Source: a virus (Duplodnaviria; Caudoviricetes). Taken from it: DNA of 64,000 bases. Shown piece by piece: positions 23,583-59,786 of the stretch. The notes below the pieces were generated by a model, which had not been told where the DNA came from, did no database searches, and worked only from the letters and a program-made list of their open reading frames with translations. Made by a program: the position numbers and the translations under genes. Position 1 is the stretch's first letter. Every line of letters begins with the position of its first letter. The DNA lies in the IMG/VR virus record IMGVR_UViG_3300046786_000888, positions 14,106-78,105 of that record, one strand, 5' to 3'.

Positions 23583-24591
23583 TCAAGCGTTAAAGGAGTA
23601 AGCGATGGTGGCGAAATCAGCATTCAGGAGTTCGAAACCTGCGTACAGGCTCCAAATCATCATGATAAAACGGCTGAAATCGTCGTTGTTATTCAGGAGC
23701 ACCTGAGCGTTGTTGCCGCCGATACCGACGCCCACGCTTTGGGGACCGAAGAACATACCGATTGCGCTCTCATAGGATTTAGCCGTACCGCCGATGGTAG
23801 CGGTCTGGCTTTGAGAGGGCATGTTGGTCGATTCGAAGAAGCGCACGCCTTCGAACACGAAACCGGTGGGCATGATCGGCTCGCCGGCCACGAAGCTGGC
23901 TTGACCGAAGCCCTGACCCATGTAGATAGCAGCGTTGGGCTGCATACCAGACATGAGGGGATTGATCTGACCGTTGCCAGGATAACGAGCCACTTCACGG
24001 AAGTCGCTGTTCTGACGCAGGTGCATCAGGAAGGTAGGATCGCACACACAGCGATAGAAACCGTCCTGATAGGTAGGAACGTTACGCTTACGCAGGCTCT
24101 TCACCACGCGCAGCAGGTCGTCCTTAACGTCGAACTTAGCTTGTTCGGCGTTGGTGTAGGTCAGCGAACCGACGGCGAGGTCGCCAGGGTAGTAATAACC
24201 ACCTTGGGTGTCGGAAGCTTGACCCTTAGAAACTGCTTTCAGGAGTTCGTTGATGAACACCCGGTCACGCCAACGACGATAGTCGTCGAGCAGAGTCAGC
24301 GAACCGATGGACTGGTGGAACGCGGTGAGGTTACCGGTATCCAGCAGCAGACGCTGAGCGGTGATCAGGGTCTCGCGAGCAATCTTAAAGGTGCTCGGCT
24401 GAGTAGGATCAGTCGGGTCGGCAGGGCCAGTGTACTCGCGGAGAGTCACGAGCACTTTGTCCTTAACGATATTCCGGCTGTTGGCAGTACCGATGGTCTG
24501 CTCAGCAGTGCGCTCCCGAGACTCCTTAGAGCCGGGGTTGCCCCAGAAACGATAACGGTCAAGCTGAACGGTTTGGCCGGGTTGTTTGCTA
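23583..24591 (-). CDS. Major capsid protein (N4-gp56-like), exon 2
   Basis: Frame is open from 24590: SKQPGQTVQLDRYRFWG... to 'GFVFEGVRFFESTNMP'; joined to exon 1 it gives 371 aa. Confidence 0.85.
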
Positions 24592-25586
24592 CCTAAAATG
24601 CTTTAATAAGCACCGCAAGGCTCTTTATCCTTGCGTAACATCAACTTAAGGACGTTGATGAGCAGACTATATCATCACCCACAGCGGGTAAATCCCCTGT
24701 TTGGGTGCTCCGCGCTCGTGTCACCTTATCGGCTTCTACAACAAACTTGTTGCGGTCAGCCTCGCTCCACTTTGACTTACCTCGATTGGTTCGAGTGTCA
24801 TAGCGAAGGTCAAATTTGTATTGCATAGCTTTACATCCGTAAGGTTTTAAAACCTCTACAAATTGCCTGGCTGATGTTCCGTTAGCTCGAAGATTCCACA
24901 GGTTGGGATTTTTCTTTGCCATCGGAACACGAGGAACTAAGGAAGCTCCTGTCAGGCTCTCTATCCAATCCGAAACAACCAAAGCTGTATCGTAAGGGAT
25001 ATATAAAGCTAGCTCAACAATGCGTTCCCGAATGTAGGGATCTCCCGTACGCGTGGACGTACCGCGCTTACGTAGGTGAAGGTTTCCGTCATCCATGTAA
25101 AGGAGGGCTAAACCTTCTAACCCTATATCTCTAAGGAAAGAAGCTGTAAATTCTTTCTTCCCGCGAGGGTAGAGCTCTCTATAAATCGGTAATAGCAGCT
25201 CTTGCTGATTAGACCACCACTGACAAGCAGGAAAACTTCCCGTTTGGCAGTCGGCTTCTCTTTCCTTAATAGGCTGTTTTATGCCGAAAATACGATTGAG
25301 TCTTCCAACTTTCCAGCGGAGAAACTCAAATTGTTTTTGAGCATGAGTGATGTGAAGGCTAGGGTAGGTCGTGACCTGCCTCAGACAACCATCGCCCAAA
25401 CAGACCCCTTTAAGAAAGGAGCGGTCGCTTCGAGAGAGCATTTGAACAGTGTTAGTCGTTGAACCTTCCAGTCATTTCTGGCTGGCTTGGCTGCTGATTA
25501 GCCTCCCTTTCGGGTCCGGCTTTCCAGCAATTCACGGAGTTTAACCGATAGGCTTTCACCTAAAGGGACTCTAGACACATAGGTCC
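24592..25586 (-). mobile_element. Group I self-splicing intron (995 nt) in the major capsid gene
   Basis: P1 exon GACUU pairs with IGS GAGUC (U-G at the splice site); P10 CUA/UAG; P GAAUUGCUGGAAA, Q AAUCAGCAGCC, R GUUCAACGACUA, S GAUGAUAUAGUC; P3 CUCCGUG/CGCGGAG; P8 and P9 stems; terminal G; removal restores the frame GAC-TT|T-AGC. Confidence 0.93.
24641..25441 (-). CDS. Intron-encoded double-motif LAGLIDADG homing endonuclease
   Basis: 'FLKGVCLGDGCL' and 'GLALLYMDDGNL' motifs, 266 aa. Confidence 0.9.
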   Translation of the reverse strand: MLSRSDRSFLKGVCLGDGCLRQVTTYPSLHITHAQKQFEFLRWKVGRLNRIFGIKQPIKEREADCQTGSFPACQWWSNQQELLLPIYRELYPRGKKEFTASFLRDIGLEGLALLYMDDGNLHLRKRGTSTRTGDPYIRERIVELALYIPYDTALVVSDWIESLTGASLVPRVPMAKKNPNLWNLRANGTSARQFVEVLKPYGCKAMQYKFDLRYDTRTNRGKSKWSEADRNKFVVEADKVTRARSTQTGDLPAVGDDIVCSSTSLS

Positions 25587-43330: not shown

Positions 43331-43713
43331 GTAAAAGCAACACGATCTGCTTTAGGGTCCTCACAGGAGTAGACCATTCCTGGGACCCACTCTTCCATTT
43401 TACCATTATCCAGTTTGACGACGTAACGCCATTGGGGTTTTCCGTCCCTTCTTAACGTCTTCTTATACCCCACGACTTCGCCTTTCTTGTTTGGCAGAGA
43501 CATCCCAGCCGAACAAGTACGTTTAGCGATCCGATCTCCCACGGCGAACCTCATGTTCGGCTGTTCAGTTGCAGTCATACAGACTCCGTTATCTCTCAAC
43601 ATGTTTAACACGGCCGCCATGCGAGCGGGAGAATCCAAAATTTCATCTTTAAAATCTTCATGCCAAAAAGCATAAAGTCCGAGCTCAAGCAGATTTGGAT
43701 TGTGCTCGGGCAT
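43327..43713 (-). CDS. Hypothetical protein with C-terminal SH3-like beta-barrel
   Basis: 'FAVGDRIAKR....KKGEVVG....YVVKLD'. Confidence 0.5.
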   Translation of the reverse strand: MPEHNPNLLELGLYAFWHEDFKDEILDSPARMAAVLNMLRDNGVCMTATEQPNMRFAVGDRIAKRTCSAGMSLPNKKGEVVGYKKTLRRDGKPQWRYVVKLDNGKMEEWVPGMVYSCEDPKADRVAFT

Positions 43714-43936
43714 TGCGCTCCAGACGAGCCTTGTGGATCCGAAGCTTACACAAGCCCCGGTAGAAAAAACCAAAATGTTCAGCGCTCGTCACTCTTGTGC
43801 GCTTTCCGCAGAGCGGGCACTCGGCAACAAAAAACTGCGGGTTACGGGCCGAGTAGTCCCCATGGCGCTTACCGCAGTCCAGACATGCCTGCTTGGCCGT
43901 CTTGAGTTTATCCAGCTGTTCCTGGATAGCTTCCAT
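43685..43936 (-). CDS. Small Zn-ribbon protein
   Basis: CLDCG...CPLCG; similar to 45989..46216. Confidence 0.55.
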   Translation of the reverse strand: MEAIQEQLDKLKTAKQACLDCGKRHGDYSARNPQFFVAECPLCGKRTRVTSAEHFGFFYRGLCKLRIHKARLERNARAQSKSA

Positions 43937-44159: not shown

Positions 44160-44241
44160 TACCCAGGACGAGACTCGAACTCGTACGGCATAACGCCTCA
44201 GCATTTTAAGTGCTGTGTGTCTACCATTCCACCACCTGGGC
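44160..44241 (-). tRNA. trnL: tRNA-Leu (anticodon UAA), no encoded CCA
   Basis: GCCCAGG/CCTGGGT acceptor, D-loop GGAATGGTAGAC, CAGCA-CTTAAAA-TGCTG anticodon arm, long variable arm, ACGAG-TTCGAGT-CTCGT T-arm. Confidence 0.96.
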
Positions 44242-53185: not shown

Positions 53186-53189
53186 GTCG

Positions 53190-53215
53190 TCGCCCCACGC
53201 GGGCGATTTTTTTTT
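53190..53215 (+). terminator. Rho-independent terminator
   Basis: TCGCCC-CACGC-GGGCGA followed by T9. Confidence 0.8.
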
Positions 53216-53596
53216 CGTTCAGGGCCTGTCCGTATACTGACACTAAACCTTTTGGCCCCGATTTTCCCGCAAGATTTACAAAGGGTTCTCGCCGGCGGCG
53301 ACGTCAAACGCACACAATTAAAAAAAAGGGGCAGGTTGCGTACAGACGCGCGGGTGCGGGGGAGCTGAGTTTGTATAACGAATCAAATAGCAATCGTTAT
53401 GTATTACAAACTCCTACTCTTGTTCTATTCTTTTTACTGAGCGGGGGAGGATACCCCTTTAACTAAAGAGAATTCAGATCGTGAAGCCGCTTGACTAAAG
53501 GGCAGACGTGGTGCTAGCGCGTGCGCCCGCGCGCTTTCCTTTAGCTAGCTAGCTGACTGTGCTCTGTGTGCTTTTGCTGACCGCACGCTTAGGGGG

Positions 53597-53626
53597 TTGA
53601 CGGGATGCGCTGATGGGGGCTACCTT
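53597..53626 (+). promoter_or_regulatory. Sigma70-type promoter in front of the large structured RNA
   Basis: TTGACG-N18-TACCTT, preceded by TAGGGGG like the 8.4/8.6-kb promoters; predicted +1 at about 53633 coincides with the first stem. Confidence 0.6.
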
Positions 53627-53632
53627 TAGGTC

Positions 53633-54410
53633 ACTGGAGGAACGGGGCGAGAGCCACGCCGCCAGGGCACCTAGACAACTGAATCAACTCTCGCGACGGC
53701 CGAACTGGCCCCGCGCGTCTGCCGCTGATGGTAGGGAGCACTTCCCCGAAGTGTAGGCAAGGGCAGGCAAGGTGTGCCGGAACGAGTGCGGCGAGAGTTG
53801 TAGTAGGTAACTAGGTGAAAGAACCTTGGTAATTGAATAGTGGAACAAGCACCGACACGGTGAGGGTAGGCGAACTAGCGCCGCACCGTGCACGGCCTTG
53901 ATGCGGATTGCGCCGATGGGGTGCGCAATAGCCAGACGGCGGCGGCCGGACTGAAATTAACGCGAGCAGTGGCAGGCTCACCGTTCCACAATGTCAGGCT
54001 GTGCTTTGTCAGCTGGCACCTTTAACTAGGTGAACAGTTAATGACAAGAACAGTTGTTGTAGTTGTTGTCAGCTAGTACCGCAAGGGAACGTACGGATGA
54101 CACAGCTTAGCCCACCAGACTCCAGCTACGGTGCAGTGCTAAGTGCCAGACCTTTAAGGTCACAGCGTGGGTATAAGGGTAGGAGATCCCCCACTAGAGA
54201 GTAATGAAGCCCAGACAATAACTACAACAACGTAACTAGAACTATACGGGCGGCGCTGAGCTTCCAGCGCCATAAGTGTGATCAAAGCCGAGCAGTAAGA
54301 CTGCGAAAGGTATAGGTCTCTACCTAAGTGTGTAGCACAGCTAAATGGTTTAGCTAAGTTGCACACACCTAACATGACGAATAGCCCGTGGCACGCAGTT
54401 AGTTACAGCT
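53633..54410 (+). ncRNA. Large (~780 nt) ornate structured non-coding RNA; GOLLD-sized, family not confirmed
   Basis: No credible ORF; at least 12 helices, including 10-bp 53685-94/53791-800, 18-bp 54053-70/54214-31 and 7-bp 54232-38/54400-06; GNRA loops, an E-loop and a predicted pseudoknot. Confidence 0.8.
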
Positions 54411-54419
54411 TTGCACTTG

Positions 54420-54785
54420 TCACTTTGCAGGCTTTGTCTGTCTGGTGGAGAATTCCAAGTTGTACCCTTTACGATCCGCACTGTTCTTTAAGCGATGATC
54501 CTTGCACGAGAGAAGTTGTAAGTTCTCCAATGTGTGCAAGCCACCCTTAAATAGTGGGATCTTGTGGTCGACTTCGTATTCTTCACCTGATTGATTAAGT
54601 CTGTCTCGTTGACGATAGAGTAAGTTGACTTGCTCAATCTCGTCTAACGAGCTTAATTTAATCTGGTGACTATAACCCCGTACACAAACTTGATCTGCTG
54701 AGGGGCAAGCTTTCCTTATTTCATCCAGTGATGTAAGGATTTCAGGTTCCACGCGGGCGATTATGTCTTTGACGTAGTCGTTCAT
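54420..54785 (-). CDS. Small HNH endonuclease convergent on the ncRNA
   Basis: 'YEVDHKIPLFKGGLHTLENLQLL....HRLK'. Confidence 0.85.
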   Translation of the reverse strand: MNDYVKDIIARVEPEILTSLDEIRKACPSADQVCVRGYSHQIKLSSLDEIEQVNLLYRQRDRLNQSGEEYEVDHKIPLFKGGLHTLENLQLLSCKDHRLKNSADRKGYNLEFSTRQTKPAK

Positions 54786-54977
54786 TTAATGTTGCCGGGG
54801 GCCAGTAGTCTACCAGACTAAGAGAGCAGGGGCATTTTGTAAGCTGTAGCTAACTCAGTGCGTATATTTTAGTTTGGAGCAACAGTTCTGAACTGTATTA
54901 GGGCGGAGCCTGTTAACTACTAGCTTTGTCCAGGTTAAGTATTAAGTTTGATCCGATAGGATCATTCTTGATCACAG

Positions 54978-55036
54978 ACTGATTCTCTCCCCCAGCCACG
55001 GGTTAGGTGAGGGATTCTTCCCTCTTTGTTGTTAGC
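54978..55036 (+). repeat. ACTGATTCTCTCC / GAGGG-hairpin leader element, copy A
   Basis: ACTGATTCTCTCC-variable stem-TGAGGG.ATTCTT.CCCTC-TTTGTTGTTAGC. Confidence 0.65.
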
Positions 55037-55053
55037 TGCCAGCCGTGTAGCTG

Positions 55054-55380
55054 GTGAATGTTATGGACATCAAGACCAACAATCAGCCTCGTCAGCCTAT
55101 GTCAGGGCTGACCCTTTCTTTGTTTGTCGGTGACAAGCAAGCTGCCAAGATTCGCAAGCAGTTTGACTACTTAACTGACACTGAGTTTGAGGATGAATCA
55201 TTCATTATGTACAAAGGTTATGTGTACGCAATGTCTGACTTTATGCGTATCGAACAAGATTCTACTGGTGATCTTGCACAGTCTGGCTGGCACGGTTACA
55301 GCTCAGACTCATTCTTTAGCGGCGTGTTAATCAAACTGTGTGATGACGGCGATGTCATCCTTGGTCGCTACTGTTCCTGA
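55054..55380 (+). CDS. Early hypothetical protein
   Basis: 'WHGYSSDSFFSGVLI...D..V..GRY'. Confidence 0.65.
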   Translation: MNVMDIKTNNQPRQPMSGLTLSLFVGDKQAAKIRKQFDYLTDTEFEDESFIMYKGYVYAMSDFMRIEQDSTGDLAQSGWHGYSSDSFFSGVLIKLCDDGDVILGRYCS

Positions 55381-55411
55381 ATTCTCTAACTAACTTGACT
55401 ACATTCAGATC

Positions 55412-55666
55412 ATGAACTACACTTACACAGCTTCACACTTCCCTAACAATGTCAGTTGGTATCGTGAACTTGTGCACCTTGATGGTGAACTTGTTGGTGA
55501 GATTAGCGAACCGACCGACTCTACTTCTGCACGCAGAATCTATCGCGTCGGTAAGTATGTCCCCTTTCAAGTTGCCGATGGGTGTGTAACTCTTGTCAGC
55601 TTTGTGACTAAGTTCGACACAGTTTCTGAGTGCAAAGACTTCATCAACAACGGAGGAATCAAGTGA
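55412..55666 (+). CDS. Early hypothetical protein
   Basis: ORF in early run. Confidence 0.55.
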   Translation: MNYTYTASHFPNNVSWYRELVHLDGELVGEISEPTDSTSARRIYRVGKYVPFQVADGCVTLVSFVTKFDTVSECKDFINNGGIK

Positions 55667-55869
55667 ACACTTTTACTCTCGCAACTGGCCGTCAAGTTGA
55701 GAAGAATGCTACGCACTGTGTGGCTGTTAAGACTCGCGGCCGCTGGAATCACCAGTGGTTCAAGTCTGACCGTGGCGCACAGAATGAGATCAAACGTCTG
55801 CGCAGTTATAGTGCAGACACTGTTGCGTACTACGACATTCAAGAGTTCAAGCTTATCCGTCCCGACTGA
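55663..55869 (+). CDS. Early hypothetical protein
   Basis: SD GGAGG plus GTG start overlapping the upstream stop. Confidence 0.55.
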   Translation: MNTFTLATGRQVEKNATHCVAVKTRGRWNHQWFKSDRGAQNEIKRLRSYSADTVAYYDIQEFKLIRPD

Positions 55870-55946
55870 TTCTCTCCTGTAGCTATCCCCAGACTGCACT
55901 GCAGTTTGGGTTAGTTACATGAGGGGTTCTCCCTCATTGTGTTAGC
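55865..55946 (+). repeat. ACTGATTCTCTCC / GAGGG-hairpin leader element, copy B
   Basis: ACTGATTCTCTCC-long stem-TGAGGG.GTTCT.CCCTCA-TTGTGTTAGC. Confidence 0.65.
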
Positions 55947-55970
55947 ACTCACCTCTTCGTGAGGATTGTT

Positions 55971-56303
55971 ATGACTTTAACTCGCAACACTGAGATCATC
56001 GCACCACGCGCTGTTGAGTACTTGTCAGGCGAGGAGTCTGGCTTGTTTACCTACGAAGACTTGCAGGACATTGCACTGCATGGTTGCGCAAAGATGGCAC
56101 CAAACAAGCTCGCGTATTATCACGATACGTGGGACTTCTTCATTGAGTTTGAGGATGAAGTAGAAGACTTCTTTTACGATAAGTACGGCGACACTTGGCT
56201 AGATAAGTTCTCCAACAACAGCACAAGTGTTCGCGGCATGGTTAATCACATGGTGTGGACCTTTGTCGACTCCATTGCCAAAGAGATCACAGGAATCAAA
56301 TGA
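55971..56303 (+). CDS. Acidic early protein (candidate Ocr-like DNA mimic)
   Basis: 20 D/E versus 9 K/R in 110 aa; 'DIALHGC...LAYYHDTWDFF.EFEDEVED'. Confidence 0.5.
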   Translation: MTLTRNTEIIAPRAVEYLSGEESGLFTYEDLQDIALHGCAKMAPNKLAYYHDTWDFFIEFEDEVEDFFYDKYGDTWLDKFSNNSTSVRGMVNHMVWTFVDSIAKEITGIK

Positions 56304-56310
56304 CTATCAT

Positions 56311-56345
56311 CCCGCTAACGCGGGGCCGACTCACACAATTACAAC
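56311..56345 (+). repeat. CCCGC-loop-GCGGG mini-hairpin cassette, copy 1
   Basis: CCCGC-TAAC-GCGGG-GCCGACTCAC-ACAATTACAAC. Confidence 0.75.
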
Positions 56346-56354
56346 ACCAACATC

Positions 56355-56630
56355 ATGGCACAGATTCAACACTACTGCGCACAGAATGATCGCAACGGTA
56401 ACCCTCGCCGTTGCTATGTATTGCTGGATCACGGCAATCCTGTTGCTGCGTGGGATGAACAATTCTATGGGCACCATGCCGTGCCTGGTGTGTGGCGCGA
56501 CGATGCCTACCACGCCGAACGGATTAACTGCACAATCGCAAAGTACAAGCAACTACTGCGCACACTTCCCTCACCTAACTGGGCACATGATGTCCCCGGT
56601 TATTCCCATTTACGCACACTCTGTTCCTGA
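56355..56630 (+). CDS. Early hypothetical protein
   Basis: 'HYCAQND.NGNPRR.YV'. Confidence 0.6.
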   Translation: MAQIQHYCAQNDRNGNPRRCYVLLDHGNPVAAWDEQFYGHHAVPGVWRDDAYHAERINCTIAKYKQLLRTLPSPNWAHDVPGYSHLRTLCS

Positions 56631-56632
56631 CT

Positions 56633-56827
56633 ATGTACGACACTGAAATTGCACTCGATCGTGAGTTCATGCGTCGCATGATTCGAGCATACGAGCAGGA
56701 CCTATTGAAGCTAGTTAATGAAACGCCTTATCATCCCGGTAGTGATTGGGCGCAGGAGCATTTACAGCTACTGGAACTGCTGCGACAACAAACATTCTCC
56801 CCACTCAAACAATCCATCAGATTCTGA
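56633..56827 (+). CDS. Early hypothetical protein
   Basis: ORF. Confidence 0.5.
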   Translation: MYDTEIALDREFMRRMIRAYEQDLLKLVNETPYHPGSDWAQEHLQLLELLRQQTFSPLKQSIRF

Positions 56828-56829
56828 TC

Positions 56830-57045
56830 ATGATGTACAACCACATCCGTGACTTCCACAAAGACCAGATCTTGCACGTTGTTAACAACTACATGACATC
56901 AGAGATGCGCAACCATCTGATGCGCGAATGTCCGGCTGCATACAACTCACTGTGTGGCCGTGTAGTTATCACGTCGCAGGTACAAGATACGGGCCGCAAG
57001 ATCATCGAGCGCCCTACAGATGTACATCTTTCTGAATTTGATTAA
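56830..57045 (+). CDS. Early hypothetical protein
   Basis: 'VNNYM..EMR..LM.E.PAAYN.LCG'. Confidence 0.55.
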   Translation: MMYNHIRDFHKDQILHVVNNYMTSEMRNHLMRECPAAYNSLCGRVVITSQVQDTGRKIIERPTDVHLSEFD

Positions 57046-57047
57046 CA

Positions 57048-57080
57048 CCGCTGCGCGGGCCGACTCACCTAATTACAACA
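57048..57080 (+). repeat. Mini-hairpin cassette, copy 2
   Basis: CCGC-TGC-GCGG-GCCGACTCAC-CTAATTACAAC. Confidence 0.75.
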
Positions 57081-57094
57081 ACATCACAAACACC

Positions 57095-57370
57095 ATGCAA
57101 GAGCCTAACCTCGTCCTTCTTGATTCCCACGGTGAGTACATCCCGCAGATGTACTGTGCAGATGCCGACGAACACTGGGCTAAATGTGTAGGTGTTGACT
57201 ACGACGATGTGCTTATTTGTCAGGCTGGCCCAGATCACGAATGGTATTGGGAGGCATGGCAGAGCATCTTAGACAACGCCAGCATCGTTAGCGATGATGT
57301 AACATGGCGGCTGCATCAGGATGGCGATCTGTGGGAAGTTCCCGACGGATACGAATGGCCTGATGCTTGA
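57095..57370 (+). CDS. Very acidic, Trp-rich early protein
   Basis: 21 D/E versus 2 K/R in 91 aa. Confidence 0.65.
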   Translation: MQEPNLVLLDSHGEYIPQMYCADADEHWAKCVGVDYDDVLICQAGPDHEWYWEAWQSILDNASIVSDDVTWRLHQDGDLWEVPDGYEWPDA

Positions 57371-57376
57371 ACCTGT

Positions 57377-57405
57377 CCCGCTACGCGGGGCGCCCTCACA
57401 CAACA
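57377..57405 (+). repeat. Mini-hairpin cassette, copy 3
   Basis: CCCGC-TAC-GCGGG-GCGCCCTCAC-ACAACACC. Confidence 0.75.
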
Positions 57406-57642
57406 CCTAGCCTTTTACCTTACTCACAGTGAATCACTTTCCTTACGATCTGTACAAACTGGACAGTCACTCTTTGTCCTACCACTCGCTCGCAAAGTAT
57501 AAACAGATCCTGCGCGATGAAGTACTACCTTTCGATGTACTCGCCCGCATTGAAGACGAGATCATCCCTGCACTTGAAGCAATCCTTTCAGTGCACGAAT
57601 CTCTCTGATATTTAACTAACCAAACACAACAGGACTAGCACC

Positions 57643-57990
57643 ATGCGTAAGATCGAACAGCAAATGTTGGAAGCGATCCATGCACGCCGCAACTGGAAGT
57701 GTGGCAACACAGAGGTAGCAGCAACAGTATTTACCCACGCGAAGAAACCAATCGACCGCGTAACTATTTACCTATACGGTCACCCAATCGCAGTAGTCAC
57801 ACCCGACACAGTTACCGTATCCGATTGCGGCTGGCAGACACCTACAACCAAGAGTAGGCTTAACGCTTTGCTGCGTAACTTGTGCGGCGCTGGCGTATAT
57901 CAGAAGGATAAGAAGTGGTACGGATATGCAATCGAAGAGACTGAGTGGCTGATTGAGAAGTGCTCACGCCACGTGTTCGTCAGAGCCTAA
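57643..57990 (+). CDS. Early protein (MRKIEQQM...GWQTPTTKSRLNA family, recalled from cyanophages)
   Basis: Motif pattern. Confidence 0.65.
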   Translation: MRKIEQQMLEAIHARRNWKCGNTEVAATVFTHAKKPIDRVTIYLYGHPIAVVTPDTVTVSDCGWQTPTTKSRLNALLRNLCGAGVYQKDKKWYGYAIEETEWLIEKCSRHVFVRA

Positions 57991-58196
57991 CCAAACAAGG
58001 AGCTAATACCTAACCCAGCCAACCCACCTAACAACTCCGGTTTGTTGATGCCAGGCGCGGATTCTCCACCGGGTCCGATACCTGGCACACCAGCAAGTGA
58101 GCCGGCGACACCTAAAGGCATCCGCCCGATTAAACCAAGCGGGCCGATGTTTTCGTCGATGTACTTACTGAGAAACTGAGCGGCTAACTGTTCCAC
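57987..58196 (-). CDS. Small Gly/Pro/Leu-rich protein, inverted relative to its neighbours
   Basis: 69 aa filling the gap between plus-strand genes. Confidence 0.45.
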   Translation of the reverse strand: MEQLAAQFLSKYIDENIGPLGLIGRMPLGVAGSLAGVPGIGPGGESAPGINKPELLGGLAGLGISSLFG

Positions 58197-58401
58197 TTAA
58201 CCCTTACTCGTTACTCAAGTCTAGCAATGCCTTATTACATTCAGCGCCGAGACAACAGCAACACCGTCGAAACAATCGACGAGATCACAGACTCAAAGGA
58301 AGCTTATCGTGTGGCTCGTGAGTATGGCTTAGCGGATCCCACGGCCCGTTATTACATAGCAAAGAAGCCCTGTAAAGCTTGGTTAGAGAGTTAGCGTCCA
58401 T

Positions 58402-58430
58402 CCCGCTTCGCGGGGCCGCCGCACAGTTTA
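58402..58430 (+). repeat. Mini-hairpin cassette, copy 4
   Basis: CCCGC-TTC-GCGGG-GCCGCCGCAC. Confidence 0.75.
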
Positions 58431-58450
58431 ACTTCACAATCACAACAATC

Positions 58451-58768
58451 ATGAAACGTCTTTTCTTTTTGATTCCTTTTGTTGTCTTGTCTCCCATGCA
58501 GGCTCGTACAGTAAACGCAACTGTATATCATGGGTGGTATCACAATCGCACCACATATTGTGGGCAAACATATCAACACTGGGGTGTGACAGCGGCGCAT
58601 CCTTGGTTGCCTTGTGGAACGAGGGTGCGAGTTACTTATGCGGGCAGATCTTTAACTGTGCCCATCACAGATCGCTGTGACTGTAACTCAATCGACTTGT
58701 CCGCAGGTGCAGCGTATCGCTTAAACATACCCCTCAACGACACAAGGAGGGTACACATTAGTTACTAG
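58451..58768 (+). CDS. Secreted RlpA-like double-psi beta-barrel (DPBB) protein
   Basis: Signal peptide MKRLFFLIPFVVLSPMQA; 'ATVY...T..GQ......TAAHPWLP.GTRVRVT.....V.I.DR....IDLS..AA..L'. Confidence 0.85.
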   Translation: MKRLFFLIPFVVLSPMQARTVNATVYHGWYHNRTTYCGQTYQHWGVTAAHPWLPCGTRVRVTYAGRSLTVPITDRCDCNSIDLSAGAAYRLNIPLNDTRRVHISY

Positions 58769-59712: not shown

Positions 59713-59786
59713 GGGGGTCTAGCACTCTGGTTGAATGCCGCGTGCTCATAACACGCATAAGATGGGTTCGATTCCCATGGCCCCTA
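59713..59786 (+). tRNA. tRNA with CAU anticodon (elongator Met or lysidine-Ile2), no encoded CCA
   Basis: GGGGGTC/GGCCCCT acceptor, GCGTG-CTCATAA-CACGC anticodon arm, ATGGG-TTCGATT-CCCAT T-arm; lacks the initiator 3GC pairs. Confidence 0.92.

Follow-up and report, generated by a model that had tools for sequence, protein, structure and literature searches.

Between small early genes of a cyanophage related to Synechococcus phage S-EIV1 stand four short GC-rich hairpins, which raise the question of whether they work as DNA, in the manner of a promoter, as RNA in the early transcript, or as sites at which genes are exchanged. The initial annotation of the window (the whole 64-kb stretch of DNA analysed here) had proposed structure-based early promoters or recombination sites. 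To our knowledge, no phages other than the N4-like ones, with their giant injected polymerase, have been proven to use structure-based promoters.

A repeated cassette between early genes

All four GC mini-hairpin cassettes that had been described are present with the sequences claimed for them (Table 1), each shortly 3' of a stop codon; the stops at 56301, 57043, 57368 and 58392 precede cassettes 1–4 by 7, 1, 6 and 7 nt. As also described, every hairpin is followed by a GC-containing box, GC(C/G)..C(T/G)CAC, and then by a leader, which is G-poor at all four; leaders of 30, 35, 39 and 36 nt lead to start codons at 56355, 57095, 57429 (GTG) and 58451. The pattern of hairpin plus box occurs at four sites in the window, all on the + strand, where shuffles expect 0.04, and the whole 78,105-bp genome (97% complete) holds no further cassette. 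In nearest-neighbour folding the stability of the four hairpins alone is unremarkable; the signal is their repetition, strand bias and conservation rather than hairpin stability. Rfam has no family at the four sites, and megablast of the cassette region against GenBank phages gave no match. Stop-codon readthrough into the next gene is ruled out because an in-frame TAA lies in the loop of cassette 1.

Table 1 Cassettes and neighbouring features of the early region (positions in the window)
Feature	Position	Strand	Details
Canonical hairpin and T-run terminator	53189–53215		Between late and early blocks
Possible host-type promoter	53597–53626	+	TTGACG-N18-TACCTT; head of + strand early block
First early operon	55054–56303	+	Four ORFs, one with DUF7222; no cassette
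Cassette 1	56311–56354	+	Hairpin CCCGC-TAAC-GCGGG 56311–56324, loop TAAC; box 56325–56339; -10-like CACAAT 56334–56339; predicted start A56346; leader ends 56354
Module after cassette 1	56355–57045	+	ORFs 56355–56630, 56633–56827, 56830–57045; no family assigned
Cassette 2	57047–57094	+	Hairpin (A)CCGC-TGC-GCGG(G) 57047–57059, loop TGC; 4-bp core 57048–57058, outer pair A.G; one G fewer ahead of box; CAC 57066–57068; predicted start A57080
Gene after cassette 2	57095–57370	+	91 aa, no family
Cassette 3	57377–57428	+	Hairpin CCCGC-TAC-GCGGG 57377–57389, loop TAC; box GCGCCCTCAC 57390–57399; hexamer CACAAC without final T; TACCTT 57417–57422 immediately 5' of GTG start
Module after cassette 3	57429–58394	+	ORFs 57429–57608, 57643–57990 (Kyano_Gp96 domain), 58227–58394
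Cassette 4	58402–58450	+	Hairpin CCCGC-TTC-GCGGG 58402–58414, loop TTC; alternative pairing of 3' arm with CCGC inside box; box GCCGCCGCAC 58415–58424; hexamer CAGTTT 58424–58429; predicted start A58436
Gene after cassette 4	58451–58768	+	Secreted DPBB_1 (RlpA-like) protein

The four belong to a repeat family of about 80 distinct homologous cassettes, which always point in the direction of the genes and are spread at 1–5 copies per contig over roughly 35 contigs of related viruses. A scan of viral contigs with the hairpin plus GCCGNC gave mostly chance matches in GC-rich phages and was dropped. The commonest box is GCCAAC, not GCCGAC. The complete relatives, of 87 and 82 kb, have cassettes nowhere but in the early region, which is rich in orphan ORFs and where the cassette fills the entire stop-to-start gap. 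Within the homologous set it starts 0–8 nt 3' of a stop codon and ends 27–39 nt ahead of the following start; the distance from hairpin to start codon is 23–39 nt in 30 of 32 cassettes, with a mode of 27 nt that recurs before at least five unrelated genes. S-EIV1 itself has different hairpins ahead of its early genes, one of them with a GCAA loop on the gene strand.

Gene content between cassettes varies among relatives, a possibility raised in the initial annotation, and even close relatives differ by whole modules, a gene together with its cassette having been gained or lost. L005 is without 56833–57093, L004 and L006 have additional modules adjoining cassettes, and 57993–58226 is an insertion relative to L004, which is without those bases; the DPBB_1 gene has a cassette upstream in most relatives. 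Because the cassette modules are repeated, recombination between them would also shuffle early genes. HNH genes lie near cassettes, and the IMG/VR contigs L004, L024 and L164 end within about 55 nt of one. Even with these contig ends, the nearby HNH genes and the differing modules in its favour, we consider it highly unlikely that the cassette is primarily a recombination site, its hairpin being the target at which a recombinase or nuclease specific for DNA structure mobilises gene cassettes, as at integron attC: the readable breakpoints lie at start codons or in leaders and not in the hairpin, no recombinase was found, and homologous recombination between repeats suffices for the pattern.

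Selection on stem and loop

The core GC-T(N)NC-GC is nearly invariant among the roughly 80 distinct cassettes, and around it the stem covaries. At stem pairs 2 and 3 there is either C-G or a double change (3 T-A, 5 A-T), with no unpaired cells, and the covariation score of 0.207 compares with 0.085 ± 0.015 in shuffles and was reached by none of 500. Since changes in the outer stem come as compensatory pairs, with no intermediate in which one side alone has changed, a base-paired structure is, on this comparison of sequences, under selection, as DNA or as RNA. Differing stems stand side by side within one contig (L148, L155), which argues for base pairing and against a dimer-binding palindrome; the occurrence of both 3- and 4-nt loops at a fixed register from 3' arm to box likewise favours pairing. 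The initial annotation had seen selection on a DNA rather than an RNA hairpin, and the part of that claim that concerns the hairpin stands. As to the molecule, folding energies separate neither RNA from DNA nor top from bottom strand, and a wobble-asymmetry test on the inner stem pairs was uninformative, wobble pairs being absent from those positions in true cassettes. As outer pair, T.G occurs in 5 alignment rows, and in 7 cassettes against 2 with A/C; about a quarter of cassettes have a stem of only 4 bp.

The loop had been described as varying only in its middle, with the template strand always reading G..A. Of 80 distinct cassettes, 76 conform, their gene strand reading T..C, and the rule extends across orthologous sites, where T..C is kept despite changes in the middle base and in loop length. 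T-N-C triloops account for 45 of the 80 and T-NN-C tetraloops for 32, the other 3 (TAT, TGAA, TAAA) having no C at the end, with 4-nt loops making up 40% of cassettes. Both C-GNA-G and GTTA are classic stable DNA loops. The description fails for five loops, TAT, TGAA, TAAA and TTGT (4 of 80) together with GGC in L007, and these are homologous cassettes with the non-GNA loops that the initial annotation had itself named as refuting its proposal.

Candidate start sites and the reading molecule

A YANNNT hexamer lies 3' of the hairpin, followed 7 nt further on by a pyrimidine–purine step that is conserved at about 22 nt 3' of the hairpin. Among 30 distinct cassettes chosen without anchoring on the box, 25 have A as the second base of the hexamer and 23 have T as the sixth, although the leaders contain only 17% T (and 8.5% G); the full YANNNT occurs in 19, and the step stands 7 nt past the hexamer in 24. 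The first base is usually C (CACAAT), and the hexamers of cassettes 2 and 3 are poor. In the leaders TANNNT is only modestly enriched (30 of 80, where shuffles give 18.8 ± 3.7). Since the cassettes are copies of one another by homology, conserved leader positions do not count as independent observations. Contigs that carry an early protein, looked up for transcript ends, were DNA contigs only. As read from sequence, hexamer and step are spaced like the -10 element and start site of a bacterial promoter. A consensus scanner found no sigma-70-type promoter at any cassette, and both a -35 element and a Shine-Dalgarno sequence are absent from the cassettes.

Our leading reading, a tentative one, is a promoter/stem-loop cassette for early genes that is read by the host polymerase, the hairpin replacing the -35 element. 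The cassettes would then serve delayed-early genes as compact modules, in the way that PeSL cassettes do in T4-type phages. Host RNA polymerase would start at the pyrimidine–purine step about 22 nt past the hairpin (predicted for cassettes 1, 2 and 4 in Table 1), the YANNNT 7 nt upstream would serve as a weak -10 element, and the GC mini-hairpin, at about -34 to -22 in place of a -35 hexamer, would be a selected, sequence-specific upstream element. It would probably be recognised as the folded template-strand C-GNA-G or via its heptamer, by a factor that may be encoded in the cassette-less first operon. In favour of this reading count the repetition of the cassettes and their strand bias, their restriction to the early region, the stem covariation, the fixed register, the -10-like positions and the gain and loss of modules, as well as the ordinary terminators that the phages use elsewhere, none of which stands within 300 nt upstream of any of 81 cassettes. 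The product would be short G-poor leaders of 6–18 nt without a Shine-Dalgarno sequence, which would require an unusual mode of initiation, and we know of no DNA hairpin that is used by a host polymerase. No candidate for an activator was found; the sole HTH protein found (L001:485-1045), weighed also as a phage sigma factor of the ECF type or another, resembles a homing endonuclease. In place of a cassette, the first early operon is preceded by another kind of repeated leader element (54975–55053 and 55868–55970).

The phage has an SSB-like gene (L001:1008-1652). As for an RNA polymerase, the genome gave no match to Pfam RNA_pol and lacks the catalytic motifs by which single-subunit and two-barrel enzymes are known, and phmmer with T7 RNAP, N4 RNAPII and mini-vRNAP against this genome and S-EIV1 gave a best E of 0.13 (0.01 for the control, T7 against N4 RNAPII). 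Only two ORFs exceed 800 aa, one a primase-helicase and the other with a poor predicted structure (pLDDT 0.36); the 850-aa ORF beside the early region was rejected as a hidden polymerase, having no family, no solved-structure match and a low-confidence predicted structure. The absence of a phage RNA polymerase that had been remarked on for the window thus extends to the whole genome, and the search suggested for the remainder found no such gene there or in S-EIV1, although a very divergent enzyme may have escaped these sequence searches. Kinship with N4 was rejected too, as all N4 ORFs searched against this genome by phmmer gave no match at E below 0.001.

These results bear on the N4-like structure-based early promoter that the initial annotation had put forward, in which supercoiling would extrude a template-strand hairpin for a phage-encoded or virion-carried polymerase not recognisable as such. 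Its GC-TNC-GC heptamer is that of N4 P1 (GTTGC-TTC-GCAAC, 89–101) and P2 (GAAGC-TCC-GCTTC, 565–577), read from the N4 genome, and the heptamer and the G..A loop, with the selection on a hairpin and the varying gene content between cassettes, are what stands of the initial interpretation. Cassette stems of 5 bp, the early-region location at 1–5 copies per contig and the SSB-like gene also suit it, and the box resembles CGACTCAC / CCCTCAC, which T7 and T3 promoters have as their core. N4 promoters have been described as a conserved core with flanks that vary while pairing is kept, which the cassettes match (PMC4496689). Against it are the negative polymerase searches and the lack of N4 protein matches, the missing conserved purine 5 nt past the hairpin (the spacer being GCC(G/A)/GCGC), the 40% of loops with 4 nt and the five that are not G..A, and the position of the cassettes, which lie in the early block yet are absent from the first four + strand genes (55054–56303), which may be the first to be expressed. 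We regard this form as quite improbable. Improbable as well is a physical DNA-hairpin promoter of the N4 type, with an extrudable C-GNA-G and sequence-specific contacts, in phages without an RNA polymerase gene, where either the multisubunit polymerase of the host, aided by a small phage factor, or a type of enzyme not yet recognisable from sequence would read the hairpin.

The main rival, possible if on the whole unlikely, is an element that acts in RNA, with a polycistronic early transcript from a host-type promoter in which a sequence-specific protein binds or cuts the intercistronic hairpin and single-stranded box; after cutting, the element would shield either the upstream cistron at its 3' end or the downstream cistron at its 5' end, which is how the RNase III sites between T7 early genes function. 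No special polymerase would be necessary, and the first operon would need no such site. The early block is bracketed by a plausible promoter (53597–53626, read from sequence and below the consensus-scanner threshold) and canonical terminators, and the cassettes lie between cistrons, with no terminator within 300 nt upstream in any of 81. Given the size of the ribosome footprint, the minimum spacing of 27 nt to the start codon would leave the hairpin just beyond it. The outer T.G is a wobble pair on the gene strand only, UAAC and UGAA are recognised RNA tetraloops, and the differing early-gene hairpins of S-EIV1, with the gene-strand GCAA loop, count on the same side. On the other side, U-N-C triloops have no special stability that we know of, the 4-bp stems would be weak as RNA protectors (-5.3 kcal/mol), the -10-like geometry is left unexplained, and no ribonuclease or RNA-binding protein was found. 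The complementary C-GNA-G loop is moreover a stable DNA loop, with an N4 structure available (PMC4496689).

The position of the hairpins directly 3' of stop codons would also suit a factor-dependent attenuator or terminator that stops or pauses read-through at module ends, the box being only the start of a shared leader, and PeSL stem-loops do act as terminators (PMC2839356). This is very unlikely: an intrinsic terminator has a T-run after its hairpin and no cassette has one, whereas ordinary hairpin and T-run terminators are used elsewhere by the same phages, with 5–9 T. Downstream genes would be left without a start signal, and the box is conserved at a fixed register to the hairpin.

An extremely unlikely reading makes the cassette a CRISPR-repeat look-alike that mimics or pairs with a type I-E repeat and interferes with host CRISPR-Cas. 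On the bottom strand, GTCGGC-CCCGC-loop-GCGGG of some cassettes agrees with actinobacterial I-E repeats in arrays, and with these only, over their 5' part and hairpin, and RNA anti-CRISPRs are known that consist of solitary repeat units between phage genes (PMC10651486). Such a unit (Racr) has full-length likeness in the transcribed sense, whereas here the likeness is antisense to the genes and partial, without a 3' handle and with an upstream flank that varies, and the commonest box differs from the matching one. The scan of bacterial genomes gave 81 matches, none cyanobacterial, which consisted of chance matches and type I-E CRISPR arrays and pointed to no host; its pattern itself forced the CRISPR flank match.

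A widespread freshwater and estuarine cyanophage clade keeps the N4 hairpin core before its early genes, with clean covariation and with no polymerase gene found. If the cassette acts in DNA, hairpin promoters would not be tied to the N4 enzyme and DNA structure could steer host transcription; if it acts in RNA, the early transcripts of cyanophages would contain an intercistronic signal of a new, sequence-specific kind. In both cases it marks the boundaries of shuffled early-gene modules and offers a ready motif for locating early regions in a poorly annotated lineage.

Comparison with N4, T7 and T4-type systems

The RNase III sites between T7 early genes and the intercistronic hairpins of T4 resemble the cassettes in being hairpins between early cistrons of a polycistronic unit. 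The cassettes differ in a stem of only 4–5 bp, too short for RNase III, in their invariant core and in a box at fixed register. T7-group promoters are likewise signals of about 23 nt with CGACTCAC or CCCTCAC followed by an A/T-richer patch. Here, however, no single-subunit polymerase gene was found, the cassettes have no G start, and the hairpin stands where those promoters have their AT-rich -17 to -13 element.

N4 P1–P3, which are read by the virion RNA polymerase gp50, share with the cassettes the template-strand C-GNA-G, 5-bp stems and few copies upstream of small early genes. Promoters of the N4 type are marked by a template-strand hairpin with a 5–7 bp stem and a 3-nt G-N-A loop closed by C-G, and by a GC-rich heptamer whose flanks may vary as long as they pair; the cassettes agree in both, with triloops in 45 of 80. 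N4 transcription starts 5 nt past the hairpin (loop centre at -11) and the start-like step of the cassettes is at about 22 nt; the N4 spacer is an A/T ruler, the cassette spacer is GC-rich; 4-nt loops are common in the cassettes, unlike N4; and no virion RNA polymerase or other phage RNA polymerase was found here.

In the PeSLs of T4-type phages the sigma-70 boxes at -35 and -10 are near consensus, the DNA upstream is AT-rich and a Shine-Dalgarno sequence is present (PMC2839356), whereas the cassettes have only a weak -10-like hexamer without -35 or Shine-Dalgarno sequence, and a sequence-invariant hairpin core with a strand-specific loop. Common to the two are the repeated stop-to-start module in an orphan-rich early region and a GC-rich stem-loop placed in the spacer or the -35 region. 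Genes are gained and lost together with PeSL cassettes between close relatives (PMC2839356), as they are with the cassettes described here in L005, L004 and L006.

Lineage, genome layout and the cassette family

The phage belongs with the cyanophages of the S-EIV1 lineage on sequence grounds: its genome carries a Kyano_Gp96 domain gene and a portal-like protein 41% identical to the counterpart in Synechococcus phage S-EIV1, which was the sole match among GenBank phages. The source contig measures 78,105 bp (CheckV completeness 97%; window, bases 14106-78105). A plus-strand gene block runs from about window position 55000 across the contig end to about genome position 7800 and contains early ORFans, a MoxR ATPase, an SSB-like protein, an exonuclease and a D5-type primase-helicase; the minus strand carries structural and lysis genes.

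Features in and around the early block and elsewhere in the window
Feature	Position	Strand	Remark
Major head protein fragment	23583-24455	-	next to LAGLIDADG ORF; joint span 23583-25441
LAGLIDADG homing endonuclease ORF	24641-25441	-	adjoins major head protein fragment
tRNA-Leu (TAA)	44160-44241	-	elsewhere in window
Canonical bidirectional terminator	53189-53215		between plus-strand early and minus-strand structural/lysis blocks
Stretch of >1 kb without convincing ORF	53200-54400		80-91% conserved in relatives
Possible promoter	53597-53626		TTGACG-N18-TACCTT
Segment missing from relative L005	54034-54830
HNH endonuclease gene	54420-54785	-	inserted in non-coding region upstream of early genes
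Second leader element, copy 1	54975-55053		ahead of gene 55054
First operon (four early ORFs)	55054-56303	+
Second leader element, copy 2	55868-55970		ahead of gene 55971
Hairpins, cassettes 1-4	56311, 57047, 57377, 58402	+
Opposite-strand 69-aa ORF	57987-58196	-	inside 234-nt insertion 57993-58226
tRNA-Met (CAT)	59713-59786	+	within early block
Ordinary-type promoter/stem-loop	60506-60580		just ahead of gene 60587

The initial annotation had reported four GC mini-hairpins just past stop codons, each followed by GC(C/G)(A/C)C(T/G)CAC-like sequence and an A/C-rich leader. All four were found again with this box and a G-poor leader, 1-7 nt after the stop and 30-39 nt ahead of the next start codon. 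The combined pattern occurs four times against 0.04 expected, on the plus strand only, and a search of the rest of the 78,105-bp genome returned zero further copies. Relatives were gathered in two independent ways. The MoxR gene, which lies 4 kb downstream of the cassettes, led to 22 loci (protein identity 66-99%), and a box-only scan with no hairpin in the pattern led to 52; together these gave ~80 distinct cassettes on roughly 35 contigs, on the gene strand in every case. Among 63 box matches, those that run into an A/C-rich leader with a start codon after it have the hairpin upstream, with one degenerate exception that occurs in two contigs (L153 and L160); the others are unrelated coding sequence. 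In the complete genomes of two relatives (87 and 82 kb), cassettes are confined to the early region, with two copies (plus one stem variant) and one, respectively, and contig L152 holds four inside 1.6 kb, some separated by single small genes. The cassettes are a real, conserved, structured family of cis-elements, and a literature search found no description of it.

The ORF-poor stretch upstream of the early genes lies downstream of the possible promoter and drew nothing from Rfam. The second leader element reads GATTCTCTCC ... GGGTTAG ... GAGGG(A/G)TTCT(T)CCCTC, a terminator-like hairpin, ... TTGT(T)GTTAGC, and then a second hairpin. Its first hairpin covaries in relatives (TGAGGG/CCCTCA at L016:1813, GAGGGA/TCCCTC at L019:2570), and the element may serve the first early operon as an attenuator or a structured 5' UTR.

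Hairpin anatomy and the DNA and RNA readings

The closing GC...GC of the hairpin is invariant. Outward of it the stem reads CCGC/GCGG (69 cassettes), CAGC/GCTG (6), TCGC/GCGA (3) or GTGG/CCAC (2), and the fifth pair is frequently open. When 35 triloop cassettes chosen by heptamer and box only were aligned, stem pairs 2 and 3 were C-G or doubly changed and in none unpaired, with a covariation score above 500/500 shuffles and every slid control. Loops in distinct cassettes are TTC (27), TAAC (25), TAC (12), TAGC (5), TCC (4), TTGC (2) and, once each, TGC, TAT, TGAA, TAAA and TTGT; a cassette in contig L007, its arm damaged too, has GGC. The first loop base is T in every cassette except one and the last is C in 76/80, and at the orthologous site ahead of gene 56355 homologues the loop is TAAC, TAGC, TAC or TTC depending on the phage. 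Variant stems coexist inside single contigs (L148 and L155), and the loop has 3 or 4 nt yet the 3' arm-to-box register is constant; together these facts speak for a hairpin that folds and against a palindrome bound by a dimer.

GNA and GTTA are very stable DNA loops closed by G..A, and we know of no meaning for a U..C loop rule in RNA. As to whether the hairpin acts as DNA or RNA, the evidence points in both directions. An RNA element, a possible but rather doubtful reading, poses no polymerase problem; the unit in which the cassettes lie is flanked by a plausible promoter and real terminators, T.G outnumbers C.A at the outer pair, and S-EIV1 has unrelated hairpins in similar position, one with a gene-strand GNRA loop. 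However, the G..A loop rule favours a template-strand DNA hairpin, G..A being the closure of very stable DNA loops (PMC4496689).

The cassettes are not intrinsic terminators: none has a T-run, and textbook terminators are present elsewhere in the same genomes. In the 300 nt preceding each of 81 cassettes no such terminator was found. That the cassette is an attenuator is improbable. The idea of a CRISPR-repeat look-alike, which is hardly credible, came from the cassette's partial resemblance, in antisense, to type I-E repeats. Actinobacterial type I-E arrays at L255:5050-5330 and L276:3340-3560 have repeats whose reverse complement, CCATCCCCGC-NNNN-GCGGGGCCGAC, closely resembles cassettes 1 and 4, CAT flank included; this is probably coincidence.

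Other hairpins occupy comparable places. S-EIV1 carries modules of its own between early genes (KJ410740, ~43420-43842, minus strand; loci L002/L003), in which TGATCCGTCAAAGCGGGT precedes a 7-bp hairpin around a conserved TGCAAAC loop with a covarying stem (CCGGTAG/CTACCGG versus GGCTAGG/CCTAGCC), as well as CCACCC/GGGTGG hairpins 15 and 24 nt ahead of start codons. Ahead of the gene that comes after cassette 3, some relatives (L016:3897, L006:5820, L007:3308) have quite different hairpins, GTAGCC-TACA-GGCTAC or TGTGG-TTGT/TTGC-CCACG, then (T)ACACAAAC; position and ACACAA motif are kept and the stem is wholly changed.

A downstream -10-like signal

Thirty distinct cassettes, from loci not anchored on the box, were aligned with the box's invariant CA as reference. 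A pair of positions 4 nt apart holds A in 25/30 and T in 23/30, in leaders with a T content of only 17%, and a pyrimidine-purine step lies 7 nt past the conserved T in 24/30. These distances match those between the two key bases of the bacterial -10 hexamer and the start site. The hairpin would then sit at about -34 to -22, the place expected for a -35 element; no -35-like sequence was found at the cassettes. The G-poor leaders, without a Shine-Dalgarno sequence, would span 6-18 nt, which fits the sharp 27-nt minimum in hairpin-to-start-codon distance seen ahead of at least five unrelated genes. The hexamer, mostly CACAAT, is weak, and cassettes 2 and 3 have poor versions of it, which implies a helper factor; no candidate was identified. 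Tentatively, and short of calling it probable, we read the cassette as a promoter/stem-loop element used by the host polymerase, with the hairpin as its upstream element. The region's best sigma-70-like promoter match, TTTACA-17-TATGAT at the ordinary-type arrangement ahead of gene 60587, has a hairpin and T-run immediately after it.

Comparison with N4 promoters and T4-type cassettes

The suggestion that the cassettes are N4-like early promoters holds in part. In the N4 genome, P1 reads GTTGC-TTC-GCAAC, then TTAT, then G, and P2 GAAGC-TCC-GCTTC, then TTTT, then G; the cassettes have the identical heptamer GC-TNC-GC in the same strand sense. The family also fits what is published on the N4 promoters: their GC-rich heptamer is conserved, the repeats flanking it are free to vary while pairing is kept, and their loop contains a sheared G:A pair (PMC4496689). 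However, the geometry of the cassettes is not that of N4 promoters, the first operon has no cassette, and no polymerase was found. Searching the genome with Pfam RNA_pol gave no hit, motif searches failed to find motif B, motif C with T/DxxGR, or DxDGD in a long ORF, and ~50 ORFs gave no PHROG or Pfam match for polymerase or sigma. With T7 RNAP, N4 RNAPII and N4 mini-vRNAP as phmmer queries against this genome and S-EIV1 the best E was 0.13 (T7 RNAP and N4 RNAPII recover each other at E 0.01), and N4 proteins had no match in this genome. The sole orphan ORF >800 aa has a predicted structure of low confidence. We consider an N4-type promoter read by a hidden polymerase unlikely.

Variation in gene content between cassettes, which the initial annotation proposed to check, is borne out, in that entire modules come and go among close relatives. 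L005 has no counterpart of 56833-57093, a span comprising a gene, cassette 2 and its leader; L004 has an additional ORF of ~186 nt after cassette 2 and lacks 57993-58226; and L006 has an additional cassette-plus-gene module between two cassettes. Readable breakpoints fall in leaders or at start codons, not in the hairpin, and a recombination site, as also proposed, is a very improbable role for the cassette. Several metagenomic contigs terminate at a cassette; these ends and the module differences match the shuffling behaviour of the promoter-early stem-loop (PeSL) cassettes of T4-type phages (PMC2839356).
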